The translations under genes and the position numbers were made by a program. Shown in pieces: positions 2,497-34,100 of a stretch of 64,000 bases of DNA (position 1 is the first letter of the stretch; each line of letters begins with the position of its first letter). The notes beneath the pieces are model-generated. The model had not been told where the DNA came from. It searched no databases and saw only the letters and a list, made by a program, of their open reading frames with translations. Source of the stretch: Muribaculaceae bacterium (GTDB lineage Bacteria > Bacteroidota > Bacteroidia > Bacteroidales > Muribaculaceae); the NCBI GenBank assembly GCA_029071345.1, contig JAIEAO010000002.1:23947-87946 (forward strand), written 5' to 3'.

Positions 2497-2913
2497 ATGA
2501 AAACCAAGATATTCAAATTTTTAATGGTAATCTTCTGCGCATTGGCTGTGACTTCATGCGTGAACAACACCATCGATGAAGACGGTCTGCTCATCACCGA
2601 CCGCGACGAATGCTATGTGAGCAACTTCGACCTTACCGGCACCGACCACCTGACAGTGCGTGTCGGAGATGCCCGAATCGACAACGAGGCGTGCACAATC
2701 CATGTGACTGTGGCTTACGGCACTGACCTCCACAATCTTTACCCGAAATTCTCGTTGGTGACAGATGCTAAGTTAGAGCCGAAGATCACAGGGATCACCG
2801 ATTTCTCCGACCTTGACAATCCGCGCCAGTACACCGTGGTGTCAGGCAGCCGCAAAGTCCGCAAAACCTATACAATTTACATAACCGTTCAAGAACGCAA
2901 CTCAAACAAATGA
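2497..2913 (+). CDS. PUL lipoprotein, DUF5018-like Ig fold
   Basis: Lipobox VTSC; DFSD..NPRQYTVVSG.....KTYTI motif; follows susD. Confidence 0.7.
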   Translation: MKTKIFKFLMVIFCALAVTSCVNNTIDEDGLLITDRDECYVSNFDLTGTDHLTVRVGDARIDNEACTIHVTVAYGTDLHNLYPKFSLVTDAKLEPKITGITDFSDLDNPRQYTVVSGSRKVRKTYTIYITVQERNSNK

Positions 2914-3884
2914 AAAAGCTGATATATACATTGCTGATATCCTCGCTTCTTCTTCCGATGGTGTCATGCAGCAAAGATGACGACGGTATCCTCCCGATCA
3001 ACAACAAATGCCTTAAGCGTACGCTTGGTCCGAACGTCGTAGGGAATGAGATCTATTTCGTGTATGCGATGGCAGTGCCCTATAATACAGTAAAACTCAC
3101 GGAGTGCACCGTGGAGGCATCGATCCCCGGCGCAAACGGCACATGGCTCGAGCATAATTCCTATTATACCAACTCTTCTGGTTTTGATGTGCCTGTGCCT
3201 GTAGGGCAGCCTTCTGTCACCGACGGCAAGCTCACCACAGTCAAATTCAATGTCGACACTTGCGCCGCAGCGCTGAGATATTATTACCGCATCCCGGAGG
3301 AGGCGCGTGGCAAGACAGTTTCATTCAATTTCTCAGCTGTGGCTTCCGATGGCAGAAAGATTTCCAAGAGCATGGGTCCTTACACCATCAGCAAGCAGTA
3401 TATGACTAAAAACCTCACCCTGAGCCGTGCAGCCTGCTACATCTCTATCGAGGATATGGCGGTCTACAATTTGGAGGAGGCCAAGAAGATTCCCGAGAAG
3501 ATCGATTTGGTTTATCTCTGGCGCAACAAAATCAGCGAGGGTGTGGAATTCGGTCACACTTTTGCATCGCCGGCAGCCGACCGCGAATGGCTCGACGATC
3601 TTGAGGTGCCCGAGAGCATGAACCGCGACGTGCGCCTCCGCAAAGAGTGGGGTATCATCGACGGTCATCTGAGCGACGAACCAGACAACGGCACATATAT
3701 CGACGACATAGATTTCGAGACAATCCGACTTGAAGGTATGCCCAACTATGCTGTCAACATGAAGGTGAAGGGTGGCATGTGGATCGAGACTGCCGACGGT
3801 CGTTACCGTGCTTACATCTACATCAACAACCTCAAGGCCACCTCGGGTGGAACAATAAGCATCAAGCGATATAACATGTTTTAA
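2910..3884 (+). CDS. PUL lipoprotein (DUF4466-like, candidate surface glycan-binding protein)
   Basis: Lipobox MVSC; start overlaps upstream gene; PUL position. Confidence 0.65.
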   Translation: MKKLIYTLLISSLLLPMVSCSKDDDGILPINNKCLKRTLGPNVVGNEIYFVYAMAVPYNTVKLTECTVEASIPGANGTWLEHNSYYTNSSGFDVPVPVGQPSVTDGKLTTVKFNVDTCAAALRYYYRIPEEARGKTVSFNFSAVASDGRKISKSMGPYTISKQYMTKNLTLSRAACYISIEDMAVYNLEEAKKIPEKIDLVYLWRNKISEGVEFGHTFASPAADREWLDDLEVPESMNRDVRLRKEWGIIDGHLSDEPDNGTYIDDIDFETIRLEGMPNYAVNMKVKGGMWIETADGRYRAYIYINNLKATSGGTISIKRYNMF

Positions 3885-3914
3885 TTTCGATAGAAAACTA
3901 TAGTAAAAAGTATT

Positions 3915-3972
3915 TTGTTGCAGAGTATTGCGGAATTGTTGCATCATTTATTAATGATTGTCGCTAAACTTG
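3915..3972 (+). promoter_or_regulatory. Putative operator (TTGTTGCA x2, 21-bp period) and -7-like promoter box
   Basis: TTGTTGCA at 3915-3922 and 3936-3943; TAAACTTG at 3965-3972, one mismatch to Bacteroidetes TAnnTTTG. Confidence 0.5.
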
Positions 3973-4048
3973 CACTTGAAAAAGTCGCAGTTCTACCGCA
4001 TAACTTTAAAACGAAATACTTTTTTATTAACTCAATAATGACTTTTTT

Positions 4049-18193: not shown

Positions 18194-20350
18194 ATGAAAT
18201 ATAACTGTTTTATGAAGAGAGCTGCCGTTTTGGCAACTCTCTTTGTGTTTATATTCAGCCTGAGTTTAAGTGCAGAGGCTAAAAGCAAAAGAGTCCTTGC
18301 CATCGGCAACAGTTTTTCGGCCGATGCTGTTGAAAATCACCTCTGGGAGTTGGCTGCCGAGTCAGGCGACACCTTGATTATCGGCAATGCCTATATCGGT
18401 GGCTGCACCATTGACCGCCATCTGAATAACCTGAAGGATGATAAGGCCAACTATTCATATCGGAAAATCGAAGATGGTAAACTTGTCACCACTGACAACG
18501 TCACGCTTAGAAGTATTATCACCGACGAGTCCTGGGATATTATCACTCTCCAGCAGGCAAGTCAACTTTCGGGCACGGGTGAGTCATTTAAAAATCTTCC
18601 GCAGTTGATCAAGGGGGTGAAAGAGTTGATGCCGAATAAGGACGCGGAGATTGCTTGGCATAACACATGGGCCTACGCACGCGATTTCAAGTCTGACAAT
18701 TTCAAATATTACGGCTACGACCAGGAGGCGATGCTAGACAGTATCATTTCGGTGGTCAAGACCGTAATTCCGCAAAACGGTATCAAGCGTGTGATTCCGT
18801 CGGGCATAGCAGTTCAGAACGCAAGGAAAACATTCGGCGACGTCCTTAACCGCGACGGCTTCCACCTCGCGCTCCCTCTTGGCCGATATGTGGCCGCCTG
18901 CACATGGTATGAATTTCTCACTGGCAAAGATGTGTCCAAACTCCGCTACAAACCCACCGAACTTTCGGAAGAGGATGCCGCTGCAGCCCGATCAGTCGCC
19001 CACAATGCCAAATTTACTCTGTCATTGCGCCCTGCGGAAGATGAAAGGGCGTTCAAAAGCGTGGGCGTGGAGAAGGAAATTGAACGTTTGAAGGCTTTGA
19101 TCAATGACCCAAAGTTGGCATGGATGTTTGAAAACTGCTTTCCGAACACTTTAGACACTACGGTGAAATTTGGAAAGGATGCGAATGGAAATTACGATAC
19201 ATTTGTAGTCACGGGCGACATCCCTGCCATGTGGCTCCGCGATTCAGGTGCACAGGTATGGCCTTACGTCGCTCTTGCCAAAGACGACATGGAGCTGAGA
19301 CACCTCATCGAAGGGGTGATCCGACGACAGATAAACTGCATCCTGCTCGACCCTTACGCGAATGCTTTCAACGAAGGGCCGACCGGCAGCTATTGGGAAT
19401 CGGATTATACTGAAATGATCCCGGAGATTCACGAGCGCAAATGGGAAATCGATTCTTTGTGCTATCCGATCCGCCTTGCCTACGAGTATTGGAAAGTGAC
19501 AGGAGACGACAGCATCTTCGATGATTCATGGGTCAATGCAGTTAAGAAAATCCTAGCGACTTTTTCAGCGCAGCAACGCAAGGACGGCACAACTCCTTAC
19601 CGATTCCAGCGTAAGACCGAGCGCGCTTCCGACACATTGATCAATGACGGTCTCGGTGCCCCTGTGAAACCCTGCGGACTGATAGCCTCATCTTTCAGAC
19701 CTTCGGACGATGCGACTACTTTTCAGTTTCTGGTGCCGTCGAATCTCTTTGCCATTACGAGCCTTAGAAAAGCTGCTGAAATTCTATCTTCCGTAAATAA
19801 AGAGAAGGCGCTTGCCGATGATTGTTTGGCATTGGCGGCGGAGGTGGAGAATGCTGTCAAGGAATATACGGTTTACAATCATCTTGAGTTCGGACAAATT
19901 TATGCGTTTGAAGTGGATGGATTCGGCAACCACCTCCTGATGGATGATGCCAACGTGCCCTCACTGCTCGCGATGCCTTATCTCGGCGATGTCGATGCCG
20001 ATGATCCGATTTATCAGAATACACGCCGCTTTGTATGGAGCGACAGCAATCCCTATTTCTTCAAAGGAAAATCGGGAGAAGGGATAGGCGGTCCGCACAT
20101 CGGTTATGGGATGGCATGGCCGATGAGCATAATGATGAAGGCGTTCACCTCAAATGACCCGGAGGAAGTTGACGAATGTATTTCGATGCTGCTCTCCACT
20201 GACAACGGCACCGGGTTTATTCATGAATCTTTTGATGTCGATGATCCATCTCACTTCACAAGACCGTGGTTTGCATGGCAAAATACTCTTTTCGGAGAAT
20301 TGATTTTAAAAGTTGCGGAATCAGGCAAGAGTAAATTCTTCAAAAGGTAA
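18194..20350 (+). CDS. SGNH-like (DUF4886-type) esterase fused to GH125 exo-alpha-mannosidase
   Basis: N-terminal IGNSFS, ITLQQAS, RDGFHL; GH125 motifs CFPNTLDTT, TGDIPAMWLRDS, ERKWEIDSL, FRPSDD, MDDANVPSLL, FTRPWFAWQN. Confidence 0.88.
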   Translation: MKYNCFMKRAAVLATLFVFIFSLSLSAEAKSKRVLAIGNSFSADAVENHLWELAAESGDTLIIGNAYIGGCTIDRHLNNLKDDKANYSYRKIEDGKLVTTDNVTLRSIITDESWDIITLQQASQLSGTGESFKNLPQLIKGVKELMPNKDAEIAWHNTWAYARDFKSDNFKYYGYDQEAMLDSIISVVKTVIPQNGIKRVIPSGIAVQNARKTFGDVLNRDGFHLALPLGRYVAACTWYEFLTGKDVSKLRYKPTELSEEDAAAARSVAHNAKFTLSLRPAEDERAFKSVGVEKEIERLKALINDPKLAWMFENCFPNTLDTTVKFGKDANGNYDTFVVTGDIPAMWLRDSGAQVWPYVALAKDDMELRHLIEGVIRRQINCILLDPYANAFNEGPTGSYWESDYTEMIPEIHERKWEIDSLCYPIRLAYEYWKVTGDDSIFDDSWVNAVKKILATFSAQQRKDGTTPYRFQRKTERASDTLINDGLGAPVKPCGLIASSFRPSDDATTFQFLVPSNLFAITSLRKAAEILSSVNKEKALADDCLALAAEVENAVKEYTVYNHLEFGQIYAFEVDGFGNHLLMDDANVPSLLAMPYLGDVDADDPIYQNTRRFVWSDSNPYFFKGKSGEGIGGPHIGYGMAWPMSIMMKAFTSNDPEEVDECISMLLSTDNGTGFIHESFDVDDPSHFTRPWFAWQNTLFGELILKVAESGKSKFFKR

Positions 20351-20378
20351 TTCATTGATGATTAAAGGAGTATACCAA

Positions 20379-20500
20379 TGTAAGAATGTTGTAAATCTAA
20401 ATTTGTAGGATTGTTGCATATAAAATCAGCGGATTTGTAGGATTCTTCTATTCAAAAAAAATAATCTGATATAAGCTCCGTGTGCGAAGACCTAATTTTG
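20379..20500 (+). promoter_or_regulatory. Promoter with repeated operator-like motifs
   Basis: ATTTGTAGGATT at 20401-20412 and 20433-20444; variant TGTAAGAATGTTGTA at 20379; perfect -7 box TAATTTTG at 20493-20500. Confidence 0.6.
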
Positions 20501-20534
20501 CATCAAACAAAATTACTTCTTAAAATTTAAAGAA

Positions 20535-21833
20535 ATGAAAAAGCTTATATTAGTGTCAACCGCTTTGCTGACTTTCGCAGCTTTCGCACAGGCCGCTGAC
20601 GAACAGACGCAATATGCTCCCGGATTCCGCATAGAAGTTACGCGCATGAATCCCGCCGACGATGTTCAGGTGATCGAAATGACTCCGACTGAATACAGCA
20701 AAGTGGGAAGCACCGTATATAATGCAGAGGTGACAGTTCCCGTTTTTGAAAATTCGCATACGAAATATAGATATAATGTTATATATACTTCAGAAACCGG
20801 CGAATCTGTAACGGCCACAACCAATTTGCAGGTGGAGCGTAATTTTGAAGATGGTGAGATGAAGATTGTGGTTGCCGCCTGGTATGACGGCACGGCCACA
20901 AAGGAATACGATAAATATAAGGTTTCATTCAGCGCCACTCCATACGTGATTTGTGATGTCAACTGGACTGCGATGGGCTATTTAAAAGCCAGTGAGACCG
21001 GCGAACCCCAGACCACTTACTTCAATGTTGCAAAGGAAAAGAATTATAGCGCGATAAGAAATGTTGATTTGAGCAAATCTACGGTAAATTTCATCGCCGG
21101 CGGCAACAACCAATATCAGGCCACTTTTGTAGAGGGTACCACTCCCGTAAGAGGTAAAGACACTCTGTATAAGGCGGTGTTTGACTATCACAAGGCAGCT
21201 ATAACATTTGAGGAGGTTGATGAAATCGAATTGGAGATAGACGGCTGCACACCGTTCGTGCTCCCCGTGGCATTCATTGTTCCCGAAGGGGTGACAGCTT
21301 ACCGCTACACCGGCTATGCTGACGGCGTGATGACAATGGATCCTGTTGCGGATGGAGTGGTTGCCGCCAACGTTCCCGTAATCCTTAAAGCTGACACAAA
21401 AGATGTCTATACAATCAAGGTGCAAGGCGAACCGGTTTTTGAATTCGTCTATTCCAACCCGGCTAAACCCGGCGACCGCGCCTGGATGGCAAACGTAGCT
21501 GAAGATGAGTCTGACTTTTACGGTGTGCTTCAGCCCAGACTAGCTCCGACAACCGGCTATGTTTTTGACGGCGCAAAATTTGTGAAGGCGGAGAAGAATA
21601 CAATCGTTGGTGCTTCGCAGTGCTACATCTCTCTGCCTGATGCAGAGGCTGAAGGTGTTGACGCGATAGCTGTTGAATTGAAATCAAACGATACTCCTAC
21701 AGGAGTTGAAGATATAGTTTTCGAAATGTCGGAGAAGGAAGATGGTTGTGCTTACAACATTTTCGGACAGAAGGTTTCTGACAATTATAAAGGTATTGTG
21801 ATTAAGAATGGTAAAAAATTCATGATTAGGTAA
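20535..21833 (+). CDS. Secreted hypothetical protein with short C-terminal sorting domain
   Basis: Signal peptide; ends YNIFGQKVSDNYKGIVIKNGKKFMIR. Confidence 0.7.
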   Translation: MKKLILVSTALLTFAAFAQAADEQTQYAPGFRIEVTRMNPADDVQVIEMTPTEYSKVGSTVYNAEVTVPVFENSHTKYRYNVIYTSETGESVTATTNLQVERNFEDGEMKIVVAAWYDGTATKEYDKYKVSFSATPYVICDVNWTAMGYLKASETGEPQTTYFNVAKEKNYSAIRNVDLSKSTVNFIAGGNNQYQATFVEGTTPVRGKDTLYKAVFDYHKAAITFEEVDEIELEIDGCTPFVLPVAFIVPEGVTAYRYTGYADGVMTMDPVADGVVAANVPVILKADTKDVYTIKVQGEPVFEFVYSNPAKPGDRAWMANVAEDESDFYGVLQPRLAPTTGYVFDGAKFVKAEKNTIVGASQCYISLPDAEAEGVDAIAVELKSNDTPTGVEDIVFEMSEKEDGCAYNIFGQKVSDNYKGIVIKNGKKFMIR

Positions 21834-21858
21834 TTAAAAGGTTGGTTTGATTATGGAA

Positions 21859-21889
21859 GGAACGGGATTCAGACTCGGGGTCCCGTTCC
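21859..21889 (+). terminator. Intergenic stem-loop
   Basis: GGAACGGGA(TT)...(GG)TCCCGTTCC. Confidence 0.55.
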
Positions 21890-21942
21890 GCCCCCCCCAA
21901 AAAAAAAGTAAAAATGTTTAATTAATAATAAAATCTCGTATT

Positions 21943-22716
21943 ATGAAAATTATTACTAAAGTATTGTTTACAGCAACAGTTGCAACCGTAGCAGCAACAG
22001 GTATCAACGCTCAGACCCCCGAAGATCCCGCAGCGGTGAATTTTGATCCCGCAGAGGTAGGCGTTATCTTCGCTGCTGACCAGGATAAATATTTCGAGGT
22101 GCTCCGTGACGCCAACGGCAAACCCGCGTCAGACTGGACCACACCCGTTTGGGGTCAGAAGACTGTAATCAGCGCCGACGAGTGCAAGGGTGGTGCTTCG
22201 GCTCTCCGCATCGACGGTCTCGATTTCCTTCCGCTACAGTTCCCCTCGACATTAAGCCTTGCTCAGTGGCGTTATCTCCATGTTGATATGTGGGCAGCTG
22301 CCGACGATCAGGTTTGCTTCAAGCTCCAGAACTGGTGGCCCGGCGAGGCATACGTTTCGGATATCTACAATCTCAAAGGGGGTGAATGGACAAGTATCGA
22401 CATCGATATGGAAGACCCTGCCAACTTCCAGTGGAGTGAGGTTAAGACCGACCCCGAGACTCAGGAGAAATATACCAACAAGGGTGTAAACGTGCTCCAG
22501 ATCGCCGGCGAAAAGATTCCGAATGATTTCCAGCATGCACCCGTGATCTACATGACCAACATCATCGCCCACAACTCAGGTGCCGGTGCAGGTGTAGCCA
22601 ACATCACAGTCGAGAACGAGCTTAGCGGCAAGATCTTCAACGTGTTCGGTATCGAGGTTGACGAAAACTACAAAGGTCTCGTGATCCGCAACGGCAAGAA
22701 ATATATCCAGCAGTAA
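21943..22716 (+). CDS. Secreted single-domain CBM-like protein, homologous to the repeats of the 4049 GH5
   Basis: WRYLHVDMW...GGEWTSIDID...YMTNII; C-terminal FNVFGIEVDENYKGLVIRNGKKYIQQ. Confidence 0.7.
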   Translation: MKIITKVLFTATVATVAATGINAQTPEDPAAVNFDPAEVGVIFAADQDKYFEVLRDANGKPASDWTTPVWGQKTVISADECKGGASALRIDGLDFLPLQFPSTLSLAQWRYLHVDMWAAADDQVCFKLQNWWPGEAYVSDIYNLKGGEWTSIDIDMEDPANFQWSEVKTDPETQEKYTNKGVNVLQIAGEKIPNDFQHAPVIYMTNIIAHNSGAGAGVANITVENELSGKIFNVFGIEVDENYKGLVIRNGKKYIQQ

Positions 22717-22724
22717 GACATAAT

Positions 22725-22784
22725 AGCCCTGAAAGGGCGGATTGATGAAAACGACCCCACATGAAGCGTAGCCGAATGTGGGGT
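22725..22784. repeat. REP-like double hairpin
   Basis: GCCCTGAAAGGGC followed by ACCCCACAT-GAAGCGTAGCCGA-ATGTGGGGT. Confidence 0.5.
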
Positions 22785-22796
22785 TTTAATAAAATT

Positions 22797-23492
22797 ATGA
22801 GTATGAAAAAAGCAACCGCCACTATATTAATCGCTTTAATTTGCGTTGCATTAGGCATCAACGCAAAAGAGCCTCTGAAAATATCGATATTGGGAGATTC
22901 ATATTCCACATTCGAGGGATGCGTGACGCCCGAGACCAACGCCGTGTGGTATTTCACAACGCCTAAGCCCGACAAGACAGACCTCATCGATGCCGAACAA
23001 ACATGGTGGCGCATACTATTGAGCGACAAGCAGTATCAGCTGGAGATGAACAACTCCTATTCGGGATCCACCATCTGCAACACCGGCTACAACAACACCG
23101 ACTCCACCCCCTTCTCATTCATAACCCGGATGAACAACCTCGGCAACCCCGACCTCATCCTGATCTTCGGTGCCACCAACGACTCATGGGCAAACGTGCC
23201 TATCGGTGAATGGAAATGGAGCGATTGGACCGACGAAGAACTGAAAACCTTCCGACCGGCGTTGGCTTATATGCTTGAGAATCTGACCAAGCAATACCCC
23301 ACCTCGAAATTGCTATATATCGTCAACGACGGACTCAAATCCGAGATCACATCCTCCATAGTCGAAGCTTGCGGCCGCTACGCTGTACCCTACATCCAGC
23401 TTGTAGACATCGACAAGACCGCCGGACACCCCAACATCAACGGCATGACCCAGATCGCCACCCAAGTTGCCACCTCCCTCCCCCGTGAATAG
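22797..23492 (+). CDS. SGNH/GDSL esterase (probable carbohydrate acetylesterase)
   Basis: ILGDSYST, NNSYSGS, FGATND, D..AGHPN; start moved from 22761 to 22797/22803 because the earlier ATG lies inside the hairpin. Confidence 0.88.
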   Translation: MSMKKATATILIALICVALGINAKEPLKISILGDSYSTFEGCVTPETNAVWYFTTPKPDKTDLIDAEQTWWRILLSDKQYQLEMNNSYSGSTICNTGYNNTDSTPFSFITRMNNLGNPDLILIFGATNDSWANVPIGEWKWSDWTDEELKTFRPALAYMLENLTKQYPTSKLLYIVNDGLKSEITSSIVEACGRYAVPYIQLVDIDKTAGHPNINGMTQIATQVATSLPRE

Positions 23493-23555
23493 CACACTCC
23501 CGTAAAGCAGCGTTCCAGGACCACGACAATAATTCCAATCAGACTCAACAAAATG

Positions 23556-23586
23556 ACAGCTCGCTCTTAACAGGATGGGCTGTTTT
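23556..23586 (+). terminator. Likely terminator ending the PUL
   Basis: ACAGCTCG...TGGGCTGT running into a T-tract. Confidence 0.45.
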
Positions 23587-24019
23587 TATATTTTTTACGG
23601 AACGCGTAGCAAACCTTACTAAGGAACATTTGGGGCATAAGAAAAAAGAAAGAGCCGTCATCAGCCCTCTCCGGGTCGACTTAGCTCTTCGATAGGCGTG
23701 GGCGTTCTGTCTACAGGTCTAAAGCCTTGCAGATTACTAACCGCGTTTCTATCCTTCCAATCGCATAATGCAGCTTTCTCTTCGATGCTGCTGCGACCAG
23801 GCAATATTATGTAGATTTCCGGATACAGCTACGTCCACTTAGACGTATCAACCATATCCTTTCATCTCATATATAAGGTAATCAGCCGTTTCCGAGACGG
23901 TATTAATTCTTCATGAATCATTCTCCACTCTATTAATTTATAGTTGCATATACCAATAGAGATCCTCTTCCGTAATTAGAAAAACGCGCTTTTCCGCCCT
24001 ATTACGCCTTATAGGTGAT

Positions 24020-24328
24020 ATGAATTTAATGCATATAATTTACTCTGAGAAAGATGATTTTTTAAGAGGACGGGAGGCAAGTGTAAAGCCTGACGATAAG
24101 GAAATAATAATTACACACATCGTTCCGGAAAAGTTCCGGGGTGACATAACGGCTCTTACCAAGTATGTTGGTGAGGCCAGTTTCGAAAGCGGACTCTGTA
24201 TTGAAGTCTCGTTATCTGAATTACTGGGCATTATTCCAAGAAAAAGGAAGAGGAGGGATGCCTATGCTGCACTCATAAAGTATTTAAAAGATGAGCGCAA
24301 TATTACTTTAATAATAAAATCAAAATAG
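24020..24328 (+). CDS. Hypothetical basic protein
   Basis: 102-aa ORF, first of a tightly packed run; basic patch PRKRKRR. Confidence 0.65.
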   Translation: MNLMHIIYSEKDDFLRGREASVKPDDKEIIITHIVPEKFRGDITALTKYVGEASFESGLCIEVSLSELLGIIPRKRKRRDAYAALIKYLKDERNITLIIKSK

Positions 24329-24329
24329 A

Positions 24330-24776
24330 ATGAAGAAGAAAATTTTTATTACCGGAGAGGTTCGTGAATACAAAACTGAGAATGCCAAAGATTTTTGCAA
24401 AGGGATAGAGGATTATATAAAGGATAACCTTGTTCCGGCAGATAGTGCTGATAACGTTACTGTCTCTACCTTTGAAAATGCTACGGATGATTTGACTATA
24501 ACGTTCAATTTTGGAACAGGGAAACATATTGAGAAAGGGATGATCTCAAGAGAAATGTACCGTTGCTTTACAGGTGAAGGTACTAATTTTAAAGCACATT
24601 ATTCTATTTATTGGTCATTGAGTTTCGGGTCATCCTACCCAATGAATGTTTTCTTCCCGGTTGATGAGACTATAATCTCCCACAAGAAGAACTCTCACTT
24701 CTATGGAGCTGACAGATATAAAAATATCAGCATAAACGAGAGCCCTTATAATCTTATCGTAAACATTAAATATTAA
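24330..24776 (+). CDS. Hypothetical protein
   Basis: 148-aa ORF starting 1 nt after the previous stop. Confidence 0.65.
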   Translation: MKKKIFITGEVREYKTENAKDFCKGIEDYIKDNLVPADSADNVTVSTFENATDDLTITFNFGTGKHIEKGMISREMYRCFTGEGTNFKAHYSIYWSLSFGSSYPMNVFFPVDETIISHKKNSHFYGADRYKNISINESPYNLIVNIKY

Positions 24777-24781
24777 CTGAA

Positions 24782-25357
24782 ATGGAATATACATTTATAA
24801 AAAATAGTGAAGCAGCTAAGGATCTTTCTCCTGAATGGATGGACGCTTTCGATGATATAATGCCGAAATGGTTGGAACTTTGTGTTCCGGCGTATAATGC
24901 TTGTAAAAAGAGAGGTGTATCATTTTTTGAAGTCTCAAATTATATCGACGATTGGAGCAATCCTGAGAAATTTGATGAAGACGGTTTTTCTTACATTTTA
25001 TGGCGCAAGCCAAATTGCATAACCAAGATATCTTTTGACGGTCATGGGAAATGGGGTGCTTGGGATTGGAAAACACTTATGAGGTGTGAATACCCCAATC
25101 TGTATGATAATTATACTCCGGAATATATGCGAACGGCGACAAAACTATCTGATTTTGGAGTATATAACTGCTATTTTTGGCGATATATGAATAGAAGAGA
25201 ACCTTATAACTATGTGGCCTTAAAAGTAAGGGATTATTTCCGAATATTGACCAATGATACAGAAGTGCTTTTTTCATTGGGACGTAAAAGTTATATTGCC
25301 TTTGATGAGGCCGGGAGGAAATATGGAGACCAATATTGTTACAATATTGATGGATAA
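24782..25357 (+). CDS. Hypothetical protein (Trp/Tyr-rich)
   Basis: 191-aa ORF, 5 nt after the previous stop. Confidence 0.65.
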   Translation: MEYTFIKNSEAAKDLSPEWMDAFDDIMPKWLELCVPAYNACKKRGVSFFEVSNYIDDWSNPEKFDEDGFSYILWRKPNCITKISFDGHGKWGAWDWKTLMRCEYPNLYDNYTPEYMRTATKLSDFGVYNCYFWRYMNRREPYNYVALKVRDYFRILTNDTEVLFSLGRKSYIAFDEAGRKYGDQYCYNIDG

Positions 25358-26321
25358 GAACAATAGCTCTGGAGGTTTTCTCCAGGGCTATTTTGATTAT
25401 AACCGTGAAAACCTTAGAAATATGATTAACACAACTATTAGTATAGCTAAACGATTGGAATACACCAAATACGGACTGGCAGATAAATCCGTGTATGATG
25501 TACTTGGGATGATCCAGCGCGGTGATATGATACTGTATGACCCTGAATGTGGAGAATATGATCTGAAAACGATAACTGAGGCCATCCGGCGCCAACCGGA
25601 TCCAGAAATTCAAAACGAATGGAAGGCTCGATTTATGCCTGTCGTGTTTTTCAACGGAATATGGGATGGCTCAAAAATAAGCAAATATTCCTGCATCACT
25701 GCATTGGACTTTGATAATATTCATAGCGAGGAAGATCTGAACAATACGCTTCTACTGCTGAAGAGTTCACCATTCGTATTGGCGACTTTCAGAACCTTCA
25801 AACCAAAACGTATCAAGGCTTTGATAATGCACGACAATCCTGATCCCACCCTGCATAAAGAGATGTATGCAGAGCTGATCAATTTATTTGGCACATCAGG
25901 TCTTGATACCAGCTGCAGTGATTTAAGCCGAAAAACATATCTTCCTTGGGATGATGAGATATGGATTAATACGAATTGCACCCCATATCAATTTGTTTCA
26001 AGTCACCCTGTAGTCGGAACACAGACGAAAATGATATATAAAGGTAAAAAACAAAAATCCCCATACAGCATAATCAATATTCTGAACAGCTCATGGCGAA
26101 AGAATCACACCGAATACTGGAAGGAAGGTCAACGTGCCCGGTCAGTCTTCAAGTGCGCCTGTCAATTTTGTGAATATGGTGTACCTCGAGATATGGCGGA
26201 AGATTATTTCCTTACAGGAGGATGGGAAGCTGACGACTTCACTGCAGATGAGATTCTAAAGCATGTGCGCGGAGCCTACGATTATAATAAGAATAGATTT
26301 GGTTCTAAAGATTTCGTATGA
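25350..26321 (+). CDS. BT4734/VirE N-terminal-like primase-polymerase with PriCT-like C-terminus
   Basis: MPVVFFNG..YSCITALDFDNI, LDTSCSDLSR.TYLPWD; EGQR..SVFKCACQFCEYGV; start probably 25350 or 25323 rather than 25254. Confidence 0.72.
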   Translation: MDKNNSSGGFLQGYFDYNRENLRNMINTTISIAKRLEYTKYGLADKSVYDVLGMIQRGDMILYDPECGEYDLKTITEAIRRQPDPEIQNEWKARFMPVVFFNGIWDGSKISKYSCITALDFDNIHSEEDLNNTLLLLKSSPFVLATFRTFKPKRIKALIMHDNPDPTLHKEMYAELINLFGTSGLDTSCSDLSRKTYLPWDDEIWINTNCTPYQFVSSHPVVGTQTKMIYKGKKQKSPYSIINILNSSWRKNHTEYWKEGQRARSVFKCACQFCEYGVPRDMAEDYFLTGGWEADDFTADEILKHVRGAYDYNKNRFGSKDFV

Positions 26322-26493
26322 TCGCAAATATGAGTTTAGGGTACCGCAAGAACATATCAAGGAAGTCTATCCCCTCAAACGGCGGAAGCCTAAACACACG
26401 CAACAAAATATTCCAAACACGCCCTCTTTATAAGGGAAAACTGAATATCATTAAAAAAGTGTGCAGGTCCGCTACCGTAAACACCTAATAAGT

Positions 26494-28386
26494 ATGAAGA
26501 AAGATATTATACAAATTCCAGAGAATATCAGATATATGTCTCAGGCTGCTCAAATATTACAGAATAGACTGCCCTTCAAGGGAAAATATATTCTTGATAA
26601 ATCGTTAACAGGTTGTGGTGGAACGGAGTTCTTTATAAACTCCGGCCGCCCTCTCGTTCTGATTTCTCCAAGAACGGGAGTACTCTTGAATAAGAAATCA
26701 CAACATCCGAAATGCCACTTATTCCGTAACTTGATAAAAAAGGATGTAACGCAATTAAAGGATGATCTAAGATTATATCTTGACAAATGTAGAAGTGGAA
26801 TATTCGGTCATTCTAAAACACCAATAATATTCGTTACCCTTGATTCAGCTAAATATGTCATTGAGGAGCTTAAATTCAGGGATATAATTGACAATTTCCT
26901 TTTCCTTACCGATGAATTTCAATGCCTGATAAGCGATGCTGCATTCAAAGGTAAGGTAGATTTGGAATTTCTGAGTATGCTTGATGCTGAAGCAAAGAAT
27001 ATATGCTATATGTCGGCGACACCTATTGATGACACCTATCTGAGTGCGTTGCCGGAATTTCAGGATGTGGATTATTACAAACTTGAATGGCATCCGAGCG
27101 TAATAGTAGAACCAACCGTCAAGGAGATAATGATGAAAAAGGGTGAATCGGCTCAATCCATAGTCACAAAAATAATCTCAGGCTATCGTAAGGATGGATT
27201 CTTTGCACGGAAGATTGTAAACGGAGTCACGTGTGAAGCGAAAGAAAGTGTATTCTTTATCAATGAGGTTAAGACAATTCTTCAGATAATTAAAGATAAT
27301 AGTTTATTGCCAGATGAAGTTACGGTCTTAATATCGTCAAGTAATAAATATGCTGACAGGCTGGCTAAAATGGGGTATAAGATCGAGAATCAATCCGCCG
27401 ACAGAGATAACCCTAAAAATACAGCCTTCACTTTTTGCAGTAAGGCAAGTTTTGAGGGAAGAGATTTCTATAGCTATTCGGCCTTTACATATATCTTCCT
27501 TGACGGGACAAAGGATTGGGAGGTCCATGACACCGCTATCGAGATTCCCCAGATGTTAGGTAGACAGCGATTGGACGATAATCCTTTCAAATATAATGCC
27601 TTAATATATTATAGGACCAAACCGGTTGTGCAGGGGAAAGTGGAGTATATGAAAGCCATTGAGGATAAACTTAAAGAATCCCGGACACTTGTGGATAGTT
27701 TTAACAACGGCGATGAGTGTCTAAGGAAATCATTGGTTAATATGGTAAAGAATCGGGATCCAAACAATCAATATCTTACCAATTATCTTGATGTGATTGA
27801 TGATGTGAATGGGAATTACGGGCTCCAAACAAATCTTCTTGTGGCGGTAGCAGAACATAACCTGGCCTGTAATAAAGCACATTTCTACAGCAATCCGCTA
27901 TTTCTTACAACAGCCATACACAATCAGATGGCGACCTATAATGCAAAAACTAATGAATTGCGCAACTTCGAGAAAAATTTTAATCATTCAGACTCATTTA
28001 AGAATCGAATGGAACTCTACAGCACTTTCCTGACAAACAATCCTAACTACATGCAAGTGTTGTTATGCAACCCCTTCATTGAACCGAAATACCATAAATA
28101 CTATGACTTATTAGGACCGGCTGAACTATACCGGCTTAATTATGATGAACAGGCAATCGAGAGGGAATTATACAATAGGGAAATAATTCTGCAATGTCAA
28201 GCTTACTTTGAACGCGGTCGGCTATATACCGCCGGTGAAGTCAAATCAGCACTCCAATCCATTTACGACAATCTTGGATATAAAAAGACGGCGACAGCAA
28301 ACCAACTCTTGGATTATATCAGAGTTGAGATTGTCCAGCGAACCATGCCTGACGGATCACGCCCACGCTTGTTTGAGATACTATAA
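26494..28386 (+). CDS. SF2 (DEAD-like) helicase-fold protein with variant Walker A
   Basis: LTGCGGT, LTDEFQ, MSATP, FEGRDFY, QMLGRQR; ATG at 26494. Confidence 0.75.
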   Translation: MKKDIIQIPENIRYMSQAAQILQNRLPFKGKYILDKSLTGCGGTEFFINSGRPLVLISPRTGVLLNKKSQHPKCHLFRNLIKKDVTQLKDDLRLYLDKCRSGIFGHSKTPIIFVTLDSAKYVIEELKFRDIIDNFLFLTDEFQCLISDAAFKGKVDLEFLSMLDAEAKNICYMSATPIDDTYLSALPEFQDVDYYKLEWHPSVIVEPTVKEIMMKKGESAQSIVTKIISGYRKDGFFARKIVNGVTCEAKESVFFINEVKTILQIIKDNSLLPDEVTVLISSSNKYADRLAKMGYKIENQSADRDNPKNTAFTFCSKASFEGRDFYSYSAFTYIFLDGTKDWEVHDTAIEIPQMLGRQRLDDNPFKYNALIYYRTKPVVQGKVEYMKAIEDKLKESRTLVDSFNNGDECLRKSLVNMVKNRDPNNQYLTNYLDVIDDVNGNYGLQTNLLVAVAEHNLACNKAHFYSNPLFLTTAIHNQMATYNAKTNELRNFEKNFNHSDSFKNRMELYSTFLTNNPNYMQVLLCNPFIEPKYHKYYDLLGPAELYRLNYDEQAIERELYNREIILQCQAYFERGRLYTAGEVKSALQSIYDNLGYKKTATANQLLDYIRVEIVQRTMPDGSRPRLFEIL

Positions 28387-28566
28387 TACCTTGCTACCCC
28401 CTTTGACACGGATATCAATAAAAATTGACATTGGGTAACAATGCTATCTATCAGTCATTAAAAGAGTTGACACCTTGATACCACTAATTCGAAATTTCAA
28501 AAAATCAGTCTAATACTACATTTTACAGCAACTCTCCAGGGCTATACTAAAAATTGTCAAACGATA

Positions 28567-29202
28567 TTACCCTAGAGGATTCTGTATTTTACAAAGCATC
28601 ATAACAAGAACTATTGCACATGCCCCTAAAAATGTGATGAGATTGTAGATGCTATCGGATAACATAAAGTGCCATTTTACATATGTCCAGCGCCATTTCC
28701 GCCTCTGGTAAGAAGATATGGGAGTGCTACTTTTTTTCTTTTCTTCTTTTATCGTTGCCCAGTCAAAATCTGTAGTGGAATGGTTAAGACTGCTATTCTT
28801 GATTATTTGGGCATATTGGCTATTGAAATTCATAAGCACTTCATAGGTTTCCGGTTTATCCTTTGAAGTGTAGATTCTGATTTTCTTTTCGAGATTTGCC
28901 AATTCCAAGGCACATCTATGATATTCAGCAGCCTTAGCATCATACTTTAGTTGAGAGATGATCAAGGAGAGCACAAGCACGAATGCCGAAAGACATACAG
29001 TCAGAACCGTAATAGGTTTATCATCAAGCTTTAGGGATGGAATAAACACAAGCAGATTAATCACAATGATTTCCAAAGAAAGCATAGCCACACACAATGT
29101 AGAGGCATTGTGACATCGTTGCATCCTTCGTGAGGCTTCAAATCGTGCAGCTGCCGTTCGCCAGCATCGTTGAGCCATGTTTTGTAAACTTTCTCTATCC
29201 AT
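28567..29202 (-). CDS. SLATT-domain membrane effector (SLATT_5-like)
   Basis: WRTAAARFEASRRM, two adjacent TM helices, A.EYHRCALELANL, LNHSTTDF, third C-terminal TM helix. Confidence 0.82.
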   Translation of the reverse strand: MDRESLQNMAQRCWRTAAARFEASRRMQRCHNASTLCVAMLSLEIIVINLLVFIPSLKLDDKPITVLTVCLSAFVLVLSLIISQLKYDAKAAEYHRCALELANLEKKIRIYTSKDKPETYEVLMNFNSQYAQIIKNSSLNHSTTDFDWATIKEEKKKSSTPISSYQRRKWRWTYVKWHFMLSDSIYNLITFLGACAIVLVMMLCKIQNPLG

Positions 29203-29217
29203 GATATATTAAAAAGA

Positions 29218-29347
29218 AGAAGGAAGGGGATAAAATTTGTCACGGAGCAAATCCGCAAATGCGGCCGACATCTTCCGATGCGATTAAGTTTTACCAACAT
29301 TGGTTTTTACACCAATCCTACATTAAATGTAGCCACCCCTTCCTTCT
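29218..29347 (-). ncRNA. Candidate RT-associated structured ncRNA
   Basis: Perfect 12-bp terminal inverted repeat AGAAGGAAGGGG/CCCCTTCCTTCT enclosing five hairpins; fills the RT-SLATT gap. Confidence 0.7.
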
Positions 29348-30716
29348 ATGATATTTCTCCAACGCTTATTACACTTGATTTTATAAATGATTGAATCAAA
29401 ATCTTGAACCGTCTGTCAACTTCTTTATCAGACAAATCGGTAAACTCTGAACCCTTCAGATGCCCGAACTTTTTTAAGTATCCTAACTTTTCTCCTCGTT
29501 CGGTAACCTTGTCAAAGTCTATCAAAATCGATCGGCCCATATTCTCGCGGAGATCATAGTAGGTACGAACAATAGAATTCACCTCCAGGATGGAATAGAG
29601 TTCTTTACCTAATGATTTCCTGATAAGCCTATCCAATTGATACAGAATCTTTAAGTCGTTCATCTGCTGGAAATAGGCAATCCAACCATAATTATGATTA
29701 TTAACCTTGAATCCTGAGATAAGGAAATTCAGATCAGTCTTGGCAAAGTCAAGAAACTCTTCATCATTCTTTATATAGCGCGGTCGAGAGACTGAATCCT
29801 CATACTGACTCTTTATCTGATAACATCTTCTTACAAGCCTGTCGGCAAACCGATTCTTATTAGATTCTTTGATTGAAAATATTTCGCCATCAATCTTATA
29901 GCCAATAAATTCGAATTCGTCTCCACCGATCACACCGGTCTTGGTCTTCTTTGGCGACAATGACAAACCGAGATTATGATCTGTAATGGCTGAAATTAAG
30001 ATTCCTTCAAAATCACGGTTTTCAGTGTCCGCAATCAATATATCGTCCACATATCTTAAAAACAACGCCTTCTCAAAGGTGTTGCTGATTTGCTTATGAG
30101 CACCGTCGAAATAGATTTCAGCGAGAATATTGGATATGGACAGACCTTGAGGTACACCAAGTATATTAATATCGTTTCCAGGTTTCTCACTGCAATTGAG
30201 TGTAGGCACAGTAATTGCGTTAAGCACAAGCTTTAACGCCACGGCATCAATTCTACCTGCCAGATATTTTGTCAGTACTGAATGGTTTATATTATCGTAG
30301 AAAGCCGATATATCAGCCTTGTAAAAATAAACCTTATGTCTCTCTCCCGCCTTTTCATCTAAGAATTTAGCTAATCTAAATATATACCGGTTGGGAGTTT
30401 CTCTTACTATGCCAAGCGTATCGCTCAAATATCCGTTCAGAAGTGAGAGAACAAATCTATCTCTAACATTCGGGATAGACAACACACGAGGGTACTTCCC
30501 GCGCCCTTTCAGAATCAACTTTTCAGCATAAGGCGAGAACTTATATTCACCACTGATGCATTTTTCGCGAATCCAATCCTTCTCTTTCTCGAACGTGTCT
30601 CGATATTTAGTTGGTGAAATATGATCCCTTCCACCACCCTTCTTGGGCAGTATCTTCTCATCGTAAAACGACATGAAATCAATCGAATCGATATATTCAG
30701 GAAAGGACCTCATCAT
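29346..30716 (-). CDS. Reverse transcriptase, UG/DRT defence type (DRT10/UG17-like)
   Basis: PRVLSIPNVRDR, KADISAFYDNINH, GVPQGLSISNILAEIY, RYVDDILI, FEFIGY; no maturase/endonuclease domain, no retron VTG; SLATT neighbour. Confidence 0.9.
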   Translation of the reverse strand: MMRSFPEYIDSIDFMSFYDEKILPKKGGGRDHISPTKYRDTFEKEKDWIREKCISGEYKFSPYAEKLILKGRGKYPRVLSIPNVRDRFVLSLLNGYLSDTLGIVRETPNRYIFRLAKFLDEKAGERHKVYFYKADISAFYDNINHSVLTKYLAGRIDAVALKLVLNAITVPTLNCSEKPGNDINILGVPQGLSISNILAEIYFDGAHKQISNTFEKALFLRYVDDILIADTENRDFEGILISAITDHNLGLSLSPKKTKTGVIGGDEFEFIGYKIDGEIFSIKESNKNRFADRLVRRCYQIKSQYEDSVSRPRYIKNDEEFLDFAKTDLNFLISGFKVNNHNYGWIAYFQQMNDLKILYQLDRLIRKSLGKELYSILEVNSIVRTYYDLRENMGRSILIDFDKVTERGEKLGYLKKFGHLKGSEFTDLSDKEVDRRFKILIQSFIKSSVISVGEIS

Positions 30717-30855
30717 AATACCTTATTAACGTCTTCTGTGCATTGCTTATTATTGGCAATCACCCAATTTATTATTGGATTTAGGGATCCTACAATATTT
30801 CTATTTATTTTTAATGGAAATATGTATTCGTGTTGGCAAATTCGAGATTAAACAT

Positions 30856-30863
30856 TATATTTG
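30856..30863 (+). promoter_or_regulatory. Bacteroidetes -7 promoter box pointing toward the att site
   Basis: TATATTTG matches TAnnTTTG. Confidence 0.45.
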
Positions 30864-30905
30864 CGGCAATGATTAACAAGCGTTTTTCAGGCACGTTGAT
30901 GTGAT

Positions 30906-30927
30906 TTTGTGTACCTAATTTGTGTAC
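30906..30927. repeat. 9-bp direct repeat TTTGTGTAC, putative integrase arm-type sites
   Basis: 30906-30914 and 30919-30927, about 40 bp inside the tRNA fragment. Confidence 0.6.
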
Positions 30928-30964
30928 TTGAATAAAGAACAAGGATATATCGCGCTGATTTTAA

Positions 30965-31004
30965 GGGACGTAGAGGTCGGGCGTTCGAGTCGCCTCACCC
31001 CGAC
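30965..31004 (+). pseudogene. 3' half of tRNA-Pro (probably CGG), likely attR
   Basis: GGGACGTAG-AGGTC-GGGCG-TTCGAGT-CGCCT-CACCCCG-A: 3' anticodon arm, T-arm and acceptor 3' strand; no D-arm or CGGGGTG 5' strand upstream. Confidence 0.82.
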
Positions 31005-31011
31005 TTTTTGA

Positions 31012-31048
31012 AAAAAAGAGAATCAGCCAAAAGCTGGTTCTCTTTTTT
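31012..31048 (+). terminator. Intrinsic terminator after the tRNA fragment
   Basis: AAAAAAGAGAATCAGC-CAAAA-GCTGGTTCTCTTTTTT. Confidence 0.8.
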
Positions 31049-31120
31049 CTTTATATCAGATAGTGAAGCTACTTGCTATACATTGGAGGAATTCACTATG
31101 ATTTATGACAAATAAGATAT

Positions 31121-31142
31121 AGAAGGGGGCTGGCCCCCTTCT
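31121..31142 (-). terminator. Hairpin just downstream of the GH2 stop
   Basis: AGAAGGGGGC-TG-GCCCCCTTCT. Confidence 0.7.
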
Positions 31143-31144
31143 TT

Positions 31145-34100
31145 TTATTCGGGGATGAATCGCAGGGTGTAAGTCAACTGATCTGCTCCCTGATAGTTTC
31201 CTGGGTAAGGCACTTCGTATTTGGGAAGGCATTTGTCGGAAAAACAACTGCTGTTGCCAATTCCGCGCACCCAATAATCGAAATGCATGAAGGTCTCGTC
31301 GTGCCTTTTCAGTTCATCCCAATGCTGACGGGCGTAATGTGTGCTTAAGTTCCAATCCAAGTCATTATAATGGCTGGCAGAGAAGCTGACAGGACCTTGT
31401 GTCTTGACATGAAGTTTCTGACCTGTCGTGCGATTGTAGAGTGTAAGATCACGCAGGTCCTGACGATCACCATAGCTCTGCGGATGAACGTTCTCGTCAA
31501 TCATTCCGTCAATTGTGGTGCTGTATCGACCCAGATATGATCCTGTCTTGCGGTCTGCATAGTTTGACCACGGACCGCGCGCATAGTATTCTATATCTTC
31601 AAATCCGGGAGCTAAAGTCCATCCCATGCCGAGACGGCGCAATCCACGGCGCTGCGGCTCAAAAGTGGCTTTTACATCCATCATACCGTTGGGATAAATT
31701 GTATAATCAACGGTGTAATTGCTTTTCCAACCCTCAGCTTTCATTGAAGATGTTACTTTGTCACCTTCAAGCGTGGGAGCTTTTATCAGTGAATGCGATT
31801 CGATTCCCGTGGCGGCATAGTCATATTTACCGTCGCCCTGGCGATTGCATCCGTCTGCACCCTCGCCGTCACCCTGAGCTCCGTCGCTATCATTGTCGAT
31901 ACGTCTGAAATCGTTATATTCAGGTGATGCCGCCAAGAGTTCGTTGCCTTTATATTTATAACTTTTCAGCATGCCGTTCTCATCAAATTCGATAATGAAA
32001 TTATGACCATAGACACGGTTGCCATCTACGGTAATGTCTCCGGATGCTACAACTTCTTCAAATCGCGGACGCTTGGTAAGTATGAATTGCTCGTCGGCCA
32101 AAGCATATCCGGCATCTGCCCACGGAGTGGATTCTTTAAGCAAAAGTTCGGTTATCAATGAGTATTCAGCGTTGTCATCAAGCTTTAAATCAAGAGGAAT
32201 TTTAACCTCTTTGACAGACAATGCCGGAACAGAAGGAAGCGCCAGCTCTCCTGTCTCCACAACTTTGCCATCTTTCAGAAGACGGTATCCTAATTTGAAG
32301 AGATCGGAAAGGTCGGTGTGCGGATACTTGTTGCGGATAGTCAGCACACCGGTATTTTTGTCAAATGTATTAAAATCAACGTGCTGGTAGACCTTCTTCA
32401 CCTCTGTCAGTTTAGCGGTCCAAGCCCTGTCAGGAGTTATGATTCCATTGTTAAGATAATTGCCCTGGAATCCGTTGCGGTTGCCGGGATTAGCCTGCTG
32501 TGAAGGGTCATAATCATATCCTCCGGTCCACGCATGGAAACCTCGGTCTGAAATCACTTTCTCATCCTTAATGCTCTTAGGATCATATACAGCCTGGTCA
32601 ACCCAATCCCATATACAAGCTCCTATTGTGCCGTCGCTATTCTCTATTTCCGCCCAGTAATCGCTGAGATTTCCTACCGCCTGTCCCATGGCATGGGCAT
32701 ACTCGCATATAAAAAACGGTAATTCTTTGTGGCCGTTTTTCATCTGTTTAACAGCCTCGACAGAGGGATACATCCATGACAGCATATCGGTGGAATTGAC
32801 ATCCTCCGAGTTTTCATGACAATGAATAGGACGCGGATCTAATTTCCGCACCTCTCTTGCACAGGCCTCCATATTCGCTCCCCGTCCGTTCTCGTTGCCG
32901 AGCGACCAGAATATCACACTTGGATGATTGCGGTCGCGAAGCACCATGCGAACATCCCTGTCTACGAATGCGCCGGTCCACGCCGAGTCGCGCGTCAGCC
33001 CCTGATTGCCGTGACATTCAAGGTCTGCCTCATCCATCACATAAAGACCATAGGCATCCGCAAGGGCATACATCTTCGGGTCGCGCGGATAATGGCTCGT
33101 GCGCATTGTGTTCAGGTTGGCCTGTTTCATCAAGGATATATCCTTTTTCATTGTCGCGACATCTACATACCGGCCAAACACAGGATGCGTATCATGGATG
33201 TTGGCACCCTTGAAGAACACACGTTTGCCATTGATGGTCACATATCTTTTCCCCGGCTCATTGTGATAGCCGATATTGCGGAAGCCATATTTGGTGTTGA
33301 ACACCATCTCCTCCTTGCCGTTCTTATCGAGCTGACTGATATTGACATTGTAAAGATATGGATTCTCAGTATTCCATGGGATTAATCCTTTCAAGACATC
33401 CGTTGAAAGAGCGACAGTTTGATCCTTACCGTTTAATTTTACAGTCTGCTTTGAGGATGCCACCGTTTTTCCATCATTATCCTTCAAGGCGATGCAGAAA
33501 GTCTTCACGCCCTTCTCTTTGTCACGGTTGTCAATATCAAGCACCACATTCAACCGTCCGGAAGCTGCATCCTCACTCTGATTGTCAGTGAAAATATAAT
33601 GATCACGGATAAACGTTTTAGGCACAGATTTCAGGTAGACATCGCGGTGAATGCCGCTCATGCGCCACATATCCTGACCTTCGAGGTAAGACCCGTCGGT
33701 CCATCTGTAACAGCGTACGGCAAGTTGGTTTTCCCCTTTACGCACCAATTTCGTAATGTCAAACTCCGCATCATTGTTCGAGCCTTGCGAATATCCGGCA
33801 AACTTACCGTTGACCCACACGGCAATACCACTATAGGCGCCGTTAAAATGAAGGAAGACGCGGTCTTTGTCCCAGCCTGCCGGCAAGTTGAAAGAGCGGC
33901 GGTAGAATCCCGTTGCATTGTGGTCCGTAACGCCATGCTCCTCATATCCGTGGCGGGCAAACGGAGGTTCATTATGAAAAGGATAATCAGTGTTGACATA
34001 AGCCGGCATATTATATTTACCCGCCATCTCCCAACTCATCGGCACCTTAATTTCATCCCAGCCGCTATCATCGATATCTGTTTGCTGCCATTCTGAAGGA

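Follow-up and report, generated by a model that had tools for sequence, protein, structure and literature searches.

A reverse transcriptase (RT) gene, a structured intergenic gap and a SLATT_5 gene lie together in a 64,000-nucleotide (nt) stretch of a Muribaculaceae genome (GenBank assembly GCA_029071345.1, contig JAIEAO010000002.1, positions 23,947 to 87,946; we refer to this whole stretch as the window), and very probably make up a DRT10 (UG17) subtype B module with a predicted role in phage defence through the synthesis of repeat DNA. The locus is an intact DRT10/UG17 module of the published form, in which the RT is followed by a non-coding RNA (ncRNA) and then by SLATT, and it is of an already known type. 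RT, gap and SLATT gene share one orientation, on the minus strand:

29346-30716, minus strand: RT open reading frame (ORF), 456 amino acids (aa), from the ORF list
29203-29345, minus strand: gap between the RT and SLATT genes, 143 nt, from the ORF list
28567-29202, minus strand: SLATT_5 gene, 211 aa, from the ORF list

A first-pass annotation, made from the letters and the ORF list, had seen here a 456-aa RT with an intact YVDD, a 143-nt gap and a SLATT gene with three transmembrane segments, all co-oriented at the end of an AT-rich island. Each of these observations agrees with our analysis: the YVDD is intact at residues 222-225, the ORF coordinates give the same gap and orientation, Kyte-Doolittle analysis of the SLATT protein gives three hydrophobic segments (36-54, 64-82 and 188-206), and the segment of low guanine and cytosine content (GC 0.36-0.39 across 24001-31000, against 0.42-0.51 adjoining on the left and 0.46-0.48 on the right) stops just right of the module. 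Its larger proposal, an RT-ncRNA-SLATT system of the UG17/DRT10 kind, is supported on four grounds set out below, namely the UG17 profile, the linkage to SLATT, the covarying RNA in the gap and the tree.

UG17 corresponds to DRT10, a tripartite system of ncRNA, SLATT_5 effector and RT, and belongs to the class 2, ncRNA-templated RTs (bioRxiv 10.64898/2026.04.29.721553, Sanchez-Nieto et al.). Defence by E. coli DRT10 requires the RT, the ncRNA and SLATT, and the RT makes kilobase tandem-repeat single-stranded DNA (ssDNA) from a short template in a loop of the ncRNA (Tang et al. PMC12632851). In a further study, RT and ncRNA of DRT10 assemble in a 2:1 ratio, the complex has two loops (A and B), and the C-terminal helix with its tail is reported as essential in Eco3 (bioRxiv 10.64898/2026.06.29.735271). 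The system is of current interest for this telomerase-like synthesis of tandem-repeat DNA.

The reverse transcriptase and its SLATT partner

The RT matched the PADLOC RT_UG17 profile over positions 5-422 of 429 (E 6.3e-103, 343 bits), whereas the next-best PADLOC RT family reached ~90 bits (E 3.7e-26) and the Drt9 profile 38 bits (E 1.7e-10). A PADLOC run had been proposed in the first-pass annotation as a check on the family, and RT_UG17 came out best by far (343 vs ~90 bits). Pfam RVT_1 was matched at E 1.4e-16, and the YVDD lies inside LRYVDDILIA. Twelve residues of the N-terminal half (Y58, F60, Y63, E65, L67, P76, R77, S80, P82, R85, D86 and R87) and seven further on (G344, W345, Y348, F349, Q350, L358 and D362) are invariant in an alignment of 32 homologues; the two motif strings that had earlier been read as UG17-like are both present in the translation, their key residues invariant in the same alignment. 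The SLATT protein matched Pfam SLATT_5 (E 1.3e-39), PADLOC RTasSLATT (E 1.8e-34) and NCBIfam SLATT_5 (138 bits, cutoff 60). Given the E-values for RVT_1, SLATT_5 and RT_UG17, the three parts together are, judged by sequence, not a chance arrangement.

The RT ends in ...VGEIS, with Ser456 as its final residue. Of 114 homologues longer than 430 aa, 85 end in Ser and 26 in Tyr, 111 in all with one or the other, and in an AlphaFold2 model of the RT (mean predicted local distance difference test score, pLDDT, of 90.7) a helix at residues 430-450 is followed by a tail whose residues 454-456 have pLDDT <50. In published DRT10 systems the priming residue is a C-terminal Ser (Eco3 S456) or Tyr (Eco1 Y444) (PMC12632851), and the C-terminal helix, flexible tail and terminal Ser/Tyr found here match this arrangement. 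Ser456 is therefore predicted, on the model and this likeness, as a candidate priming residue.

A covarying RNA in the gap

The gap folds with a minimum free energy of -43.1 kcal/mol (z -3.34; none of 200 shuffles was as low), on a plan of a 10-bp basal stem, P1, around hairpins, and single-sequence folds of 51 distinct gaps from related loci follow a common plan despite very different sequences. MAFFT alignment with RNAalifold, applied to 17 gap sequences, recovered only 5 P1 pairs, and because of this partial recovery a hand-set structure and covariance model were used instead. The resulting model, R1, was built from 4 sequences with P1, P2, P3 and P5 set by hand and P4 not included. It scored 152 bits on the window gap and matched the RT-SLATT gap, at full length and on the correct strand, in 65 of 83 sources, with only four matches elsewhere, all weak (E 0.5-0.7).

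The gap encodes a conserved RNA with covarying helices. Across a covariation alignment of 42 rows, 41 of them distinct, 97.9% of modelled cells are paired, against 48-58% when the partners are slid by 1-3 columns; each of the 24 modelled pairs has changed on both sides, with a covariation score of 0.607 where the slid pairings reach 0.07-0.15. In the window the parts of the RNA are:

29211-29347, minus strand: predicted DRT10 ncRNA, beginning at the RT stop codon, with P1, four hairpins, two single-stranded loops and a U-rich tail
29336-29345, minus strand: P1 5' strand, AAGGAAGGGG; 10 pairs, all with changes on both sides, 99.0% of cells paired
29318-29332, minus strand: P2 hairpin (helix 2), 4 modelled pairs, all covarying
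29299-29316, minus strand: P3 hairpin (helix 3), 6 pairs, all covarying
29284-29298, minus strand: first single-stranded loop, UUGGUAAA (UUUGUAAA in relatives), with the most conserved bases of the RNA
29265-29283, minus strand: P4 hairpin, variable in sequence and length among relatives, outside the covariance model
29253-29264, minus strand: P5 hairpin CCGC-AUUU-GCGG (helix 4), 4 pairs, all covarying, 99.3% paired
29230-29252, minus strand: putative template loop, AUUUGCUCCGUGACAAAUUUUAU, directly 3' of P5
29220-29229, minus strand: P1 3' strand, CCCCUUCCUU, placed by fold and covariation
29211-29219, minus strand: U-rich tail, CUUCUUUUU, directly after the P1 3' strand

Columns T47, T49, G52, T53 and A55 of the first loop are invariant or nearly so. 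The order of the parts (P1, P2, P3, conserved loop, P4, P5, second loop) is the same as that published for the DRT10 ncRNA, and by likeness to SL5 of E. coli DRT10 we consider P5 a candidate template-boundary element. An Rfam search of 19000-32000 at E <=1 returned two chance-level small RNA matches only and nothing in the gap. R1 did not detect the ncRNAs of loci with SLATT>RT order, and this failure outside its branch agrees with the published remark that ncRNA models work only within subtypes. Two Bacteroides rows of UG17 in the published Table S1 (B. thetaiotaomicron and B. clarus) carry SLATT associated = 1 and ncRNA associated = 0 (PMC12632851), which implies that the E. coli-derived ncRNA models missed the RNA of the Bacteroides branch.

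Template repeat and transcript ends

Most relatives hold, in the loop 3' of P5, a repeat of the form A-B-A', with a period of 4-7, an A of 3-6 nt and a start 0-4 nt past the hairpin; examples are UCGUGC followed by UCGUG, UUUCGC followed by UUUCG, and GUGUUUC followed by GUGUUU. The mean best A over 26 distinct loops is 3.88 nt, against 3.33 +/- 0.18 in base shuffles (0 of 1000 as high), and an A of 4 nt or more occurs in a fraction of 0.62 of the loops, compared with 0.38 in shuffles (15 of 1000 reach the observed fraction); the rows being related, this enrichment is only suggestive. The window loop offers two candidates. One is UGCUCCG then UG at 29241-29249, with a period of 7 and an A/A' of 2 nt, at a position homologous to UGCUCG followed by UG and UGUUCG followed by UGUU in relatives. 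The other is AUUUGCUCCGUGACAA then AUUU, a 16-nt unit with a period of 16 and an A/A' of 4 nt. Since only UG..UG or AUUU..AUUU recur, the repeat unit in the window is uncertain; the template loop of the closest relative, L001, behaves as that of the window does.

P1 directly follows the RT stop codon and can extend into it, and at least 5 T occur within 8 nt after P1 in 18 of 26 distinct relatives. Given that P1 begins right at the RT stop and leads into a U-run, the ncRNA probably arises from the 3' end of the RT transcript, with P1 as its end point. Termination at P1 would also limit read-through into the SLATT gene. A look-up of public sequencing runs covering 28500-30800 gave six, all of them DNA contigs and none RNA, two possibly from the source sample.

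Relatives, gene order and distribution

A protein search gave 637 proteins at E <=1e-20 among 7996 scored candidates; many of the homologue matches cover 100%, and by comparison both window ORFs are full length. The locus set comprises 80 loci from metagenome contigs, found with the 32-homologue alignment as query, and 2 from genomes, while a scan of genome contigs with the single RT protein gave one locus only. The set holds many near-copies and is represented by 51 distinct gaps. A same-strand SLATT ORF lies downstream of the RT in all 72 of the 72 loci with at least 800 nt past the RT stop, so that the comparison of gene order among homologues, suggested at first pass, upholds the linkage of SLATT to the RT. 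Gap length between RT and SLATT is 119-191 nt in the relatives, except in L035. There (L035 2501-4737) the RT has no stop of its own and its ORF (2501-4012) runs 4 nt into the SLATT start across the ncRNA region, a loss that may reflect a sequencing error, a frameshift or a form with read-through.

We placed the RT in a quick IQ-TREE phylogeny of 37 rows, namely the window RT, 25 locus representatives chosen from the 82 loci to drop near-copies (L008, which had no suitable ORF, was left out), 7 plasmid records and a group-II-like outgroup of 4. The window RT falls inside the 25-row RT>SLATT clade (Shimodaira-Hasegawa-like approximate likelihood ratio test, SH-aLRT, 99), which excludes the SLATT>RT rows (Pseudomonadota and Bacillota) and the group-II-like outgroup (SH-aLRT 100). 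A phylogenetic check had likewise been called for, and in it the window RT does not group with group-II-like RTs; by sequence, the tree fits subtype B. The plasmid relatives share 28-35% RT identity. Six of the seven plasmid records have SLATT>RT order (Pseudomonas, Vibrio, Pseudoalteromonas, Rhizobium, Bacillus and Staphylococcus), and the seventh, from Rhodococcus, has no annotated SLATT.

The distribution of the module is patchy, as for defence genes. Strong UG17 matches occurred in 2 of 401 genomes sampled across the order, the window's own genome included, where the other 83 matches (E 1e-30 to 1e-50) were mostly multi-copy group-II-like RTs, and a close homologue occurred in 3 of 201 genomes sampled from the family, again with the window's own genome included. 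Searched at the protein level, a phage collection gave no match to the RT. Of nine window neighbours, none is found again in the other loci, and the flanks of ten loci differ widely, with integrases, KwaB, ThiF/JAB, an AAA_21 ATPase, Fic and capsule genes. The defence-type neighbours are a KwaB-like gene (L038 1950-2345), ThiF and JAB (L054 18-1453), the AAA_21 ATPase (L075 4952-6332) and the Fic gene (L034 1324-2391); integrase-like genes follow the module in L001 and L034.

Surrounding DNA

The module forms the right end of the low-GC segment, and part of a tRNA-Pro is found next to it, at 30965-31004. The complete tRNA-Pro(CGG) occupies contig positions 2-76 (the contig start region, L119 2-128), and its last 40 nt, together with ~55 nt of downstream terminator, are repeated at window 30965-31059 on the plus strand, 54.9 kb away; this second copy was found by whole-contig search only, and a search for an attachment-site repeat inside the window (direct repeats >25 nt, 19500-31200) found none. 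Beside the full tRNA-Pro lie an integrase-like ORF, a Sak annealing protein, a PD-(D/E)XK nuclease and a resolvase, at low GC, glycan-utilisation genes with the GC of the host occur midway along the interval, and a second low-GC block carries the DRT10 module, a BT4734/VirE-like primase-type protein and unnamed ORFs. A single large integrated element that carries cargo could account for the tRNA-Pro interval, as could a rearranged element. Copies of a TTTTGTGTACCT-like motif occur just inside both tRNA-Pro repeats (window 30904-30930, plus strand; L119 181-235), one of them inverted (L119 181-190), and they may be arm-type sites of a recombinase.

Of the island ORFs to the left of the module, a 355-aa ORF (25254-26321, plus strand) has a BT4734-like N-terminal domain (Pfam 1e-8) and matches PADLOC RTasVirE-PriCT2 (1.1e-13), a 641-aa ORF (26461-28386, plus strand) matched no family in Pfam, PADLOC, NCBIfam or PHROGs, and three small ORFs received no name from PHROGs or Pfam. 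Neither the 355-aa nor the 641-aa ORF recurs beside the module in other loci, and a comparison of the right-flank DNA in 30 relatives for synteny gave short matches only.

Predicted mechanism

By extension from E. coli DRT10, the RT would bind the ncRNA, prime DNA synthesis from its C-terminal Ser and copy a short template in the loop just 3' of P5. The end of the DNA may then realign on the downstream repeat of the template start (A-B-A'), with the addition of further repeats. Repeat ssDNA would accumulate, restrained by host nucleases and disturbed by phage ssDNA-binding factors, and its build-up would lead to SLATT activation, membrane damage and abortive infection.

Several observations weigh against the assignment or against parts of this mechanism. 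ExoI, as family PF08411, was not found in four UG17-carrying Bacteroidales genomes (G000, G583, G602 and G152), where the window's genome is 86% complete, the three other carriers are 99-100% complete and an E. coli control was positive, and as a consequence the ExoI part of the published model is not transferable as it stands; should ssDNA turnover determine the activation threshold here as well, the task would fall to some nuclease that is not ExoI. At periods of up to 10, the window loop has no A/A' of 3 nt or longer. Covariation was counted on an alignment that had been fitted to the model, and close relatives are numerous among the loci. R1 misses a subclade of L052/L054-like loci as well as L003, where its matches are weak and in the right place (E 0.06-4.7), and P4 is weakly supported, 17 of 21 distinct segments being predicted to form a hairpin of 4 bp or more, with a mean z of -0.54. 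The placement in subtype B comes from our own reference rows, published UG17-B sequences being absent from the tree. Promoters of Bacteroidetes type have the -7 motif TAnnTTTG; on the minus strand neither the RT nor the ncRNA is preceded by this motif, and a sigma-70 scan gave no usable promoter call.

Some of these points could be joined into a wider proposal, that UG17-B of gut Bacteroidales differs from E. coli DRT10 in three ways at once: the ncRNA would be the 3' end of the RT transcript, with P1 and the U-run as a terminator that gates SLATT; the template loop of the window and L001 would carry a small hairpin of its own and specify a 15-16-nt repeat; and the repeat DNA would be restrained by some nuclease other than ExoI, an enzyme that these hosts appear to lack. 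As a joint claim we regard this as unlikely.

Alternative explanations

The module might look intact and be a silent or decaying passenger of a degraded mobile element, with no part in defence now. Such a history would suit the low-GC segment at 24-31 kb, which lacks an integrase of its own and ends at a partial tRNA-Pro, with the full tRNA and an integrase-like gene 54.9 kb off, and it would suit promoter scans that recognised no motif; yet both ORFs are open and full length against their homologues, all catalytic and invariant residues are retained and every modelled helix of the ncRNA is intact in the window, and we consider decay improbable. The mobile-element-like setting would also suit an addiction module, with SLATT as a toxin under the control of the RT/ncRNA product, which would serve mainly to stabilise the element in the manner of a toxin-antitoxin pair rather than to ward off phages. 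DRT10 is indeed toxic upon loss of sbcB (bioRxiv 10.64898/2026.04.29.721553; Mestre et al. 2022 PMC9226505), but phage defence by E. coli DRT10 depends on the RT, the ncRNA and SLATT (PMC12632851; bioRxiv 10.64898/2026.04.29.721553), and other defence genes stand in the flanks of relatives. Addiction and defence are moreover mutually compatible roles, and addiction as the main role seems to us quite improbable.

It is very improbable that the gap is a spacer with a terminator or promoter only and that the RT works without an RNA template, as class 1 UG/Abi RTs do: P1 with its U-run does resemble a terminator and the template repeat of the window is unclear, but a simple terminator has no need of four covarying internal helices, the gap RNA agrees with the DRT10 ncRNA in its architecture and in its conserved single-stranded motifs, and UG17 is a class 2, ncRNA-templated RT (bioRxiv 10.64898/2026.04.29.721553). 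That the RT instead belongs to a group II intron, a retron or a diversity-generating retroelement (DGR) is refuted by the analyses that were run, and keeps next to no probability. Profile similarity to these classes exists and is weak: the group II intron RT/maturase model NCBIfam TIGR04416 gave 105.9 bits and the retron St85 model NF038233 gave 26.8 bits, far under their curated cutoffs of 300 and 235. A sequence search of the PDB with the RT found no DRT10 entry and had group II intron RTs as best matches (E 1e-8), and a Foldseek ranking of the RT model listed a group II intron RT, DRT9 (ranks 5-12), G2L4, a DGR and DRT2. The nearest solved folds are thus those of group II intron RTs, but DRT9 and DRT2 RTs are among the same fold matches and the ranking does not discriminate between RT families. 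Rfam at E <=1 gave no intron and no retron RNA in 19000-32000, the translation holds no VTG tripeptide, in keeping with the lack of a retron VTG remarked on at first pass, and 19500-31200 has no direct repeat >25 nt that could form the template and variable repeats of a DGR, whose Avd-like family is also missing among the neighbours by Pfam. The tree, too, parts the RT from group-II-like RTs. A DRT9/UG28 assignment was rejected on the profile scores (Drt9 38 bits vs UG17 343 bits). Against all of these, a DRT10 subtype B module remains the reading we favour.

Comparison with known DRT10 systems

The mechanistic work on DRT10 that we found, in a literature covered in part, concerns E. coli systems with SLATT-RT order, and within that coverage we found neither a test of defence nor sequenced cDNA for any system of RT-SLATT (subtype B) order. 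The locus leaves the understanding of DRT10 unchanged. What it adds is a clean example of the RT>ncRNA>SLATT order, with ~80 related loci and an ncRNA model supported by covariation, material on which a first biochemical study of subtype B, and of its control in hosts without an ExoI match, could be based.

DRT9/UG28, which synthesises poly-dA and has SLATT as an accessory, has in common with the window a class 2 UG RT, an ncRNA and protein priming (predicted for the window), whereas the conserved poly-U tract of the DRT9 type is not in the template loop of the window. Closer are the UG17-A systems Eco1, Eco2 and Eco3 of E. coli and that of Escherichia sp. E3659 (PMC12632851; bioRxiv 10.64898/2026.04.29.721553), with the same RT family and a SLATT effector. 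Their ncRNA has a basal stem and four or five small hairpins, as in the window, and they share with it a C-terminal helix that leads to a terminal Ser/Tyr; their template loop, 3' of a boundary hairpin, has a putative counterpart in the loop after P5. UG17-A differs in its ncRNA-SLATT-RT order with overlapping genes, and control by ExoI is described for it, whereas the four Bacteroidales carriers gave no match to the ExoI family.

Across UG17 the predominant order is SLATT-RT with overlapping genes, the alternative being RT-SLATT with a gap of ~200 bp, and each of the three subtypes has a predicted structured ncRNA upstream of SLATT (bioRxiv 10.64898/2026.04.29.721553). The RT-SLATT arrangement is UG17-B, which occurs in Pseudomonadota and Bacteroidota, with Methylotenera mobilis JLW8 and a prophage locus of E. 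coli H120 as examples, the latter of which renders sbcB essential (bioRxiv 10.64898/2026.04.29.721553). The first-pass annotation had suggested that the gene order and the host may mark an uncharacterised variant, and this suggestion does not hold: UG17-B as published already covers the RT>ncRNA>SLATT order as well as hosts in the Bacteroidota, and Table S1 of Tang et al. already lists UG17 loci of Bacteroides. UG17-B and the window have in common the RT>SLATT_5 order with an intervening gap in the region of 150-200 nt, a structured ncRNA directly upstream of SLATT and a host in the Bacteroidota. Beside UG17-B the window is marked by an ncRNA that starts from the RT stop codon and by a template loop without a clear short A-B-A'; there is no difference in kind, and the window is a gut Bacteroidales representative of this subtype.

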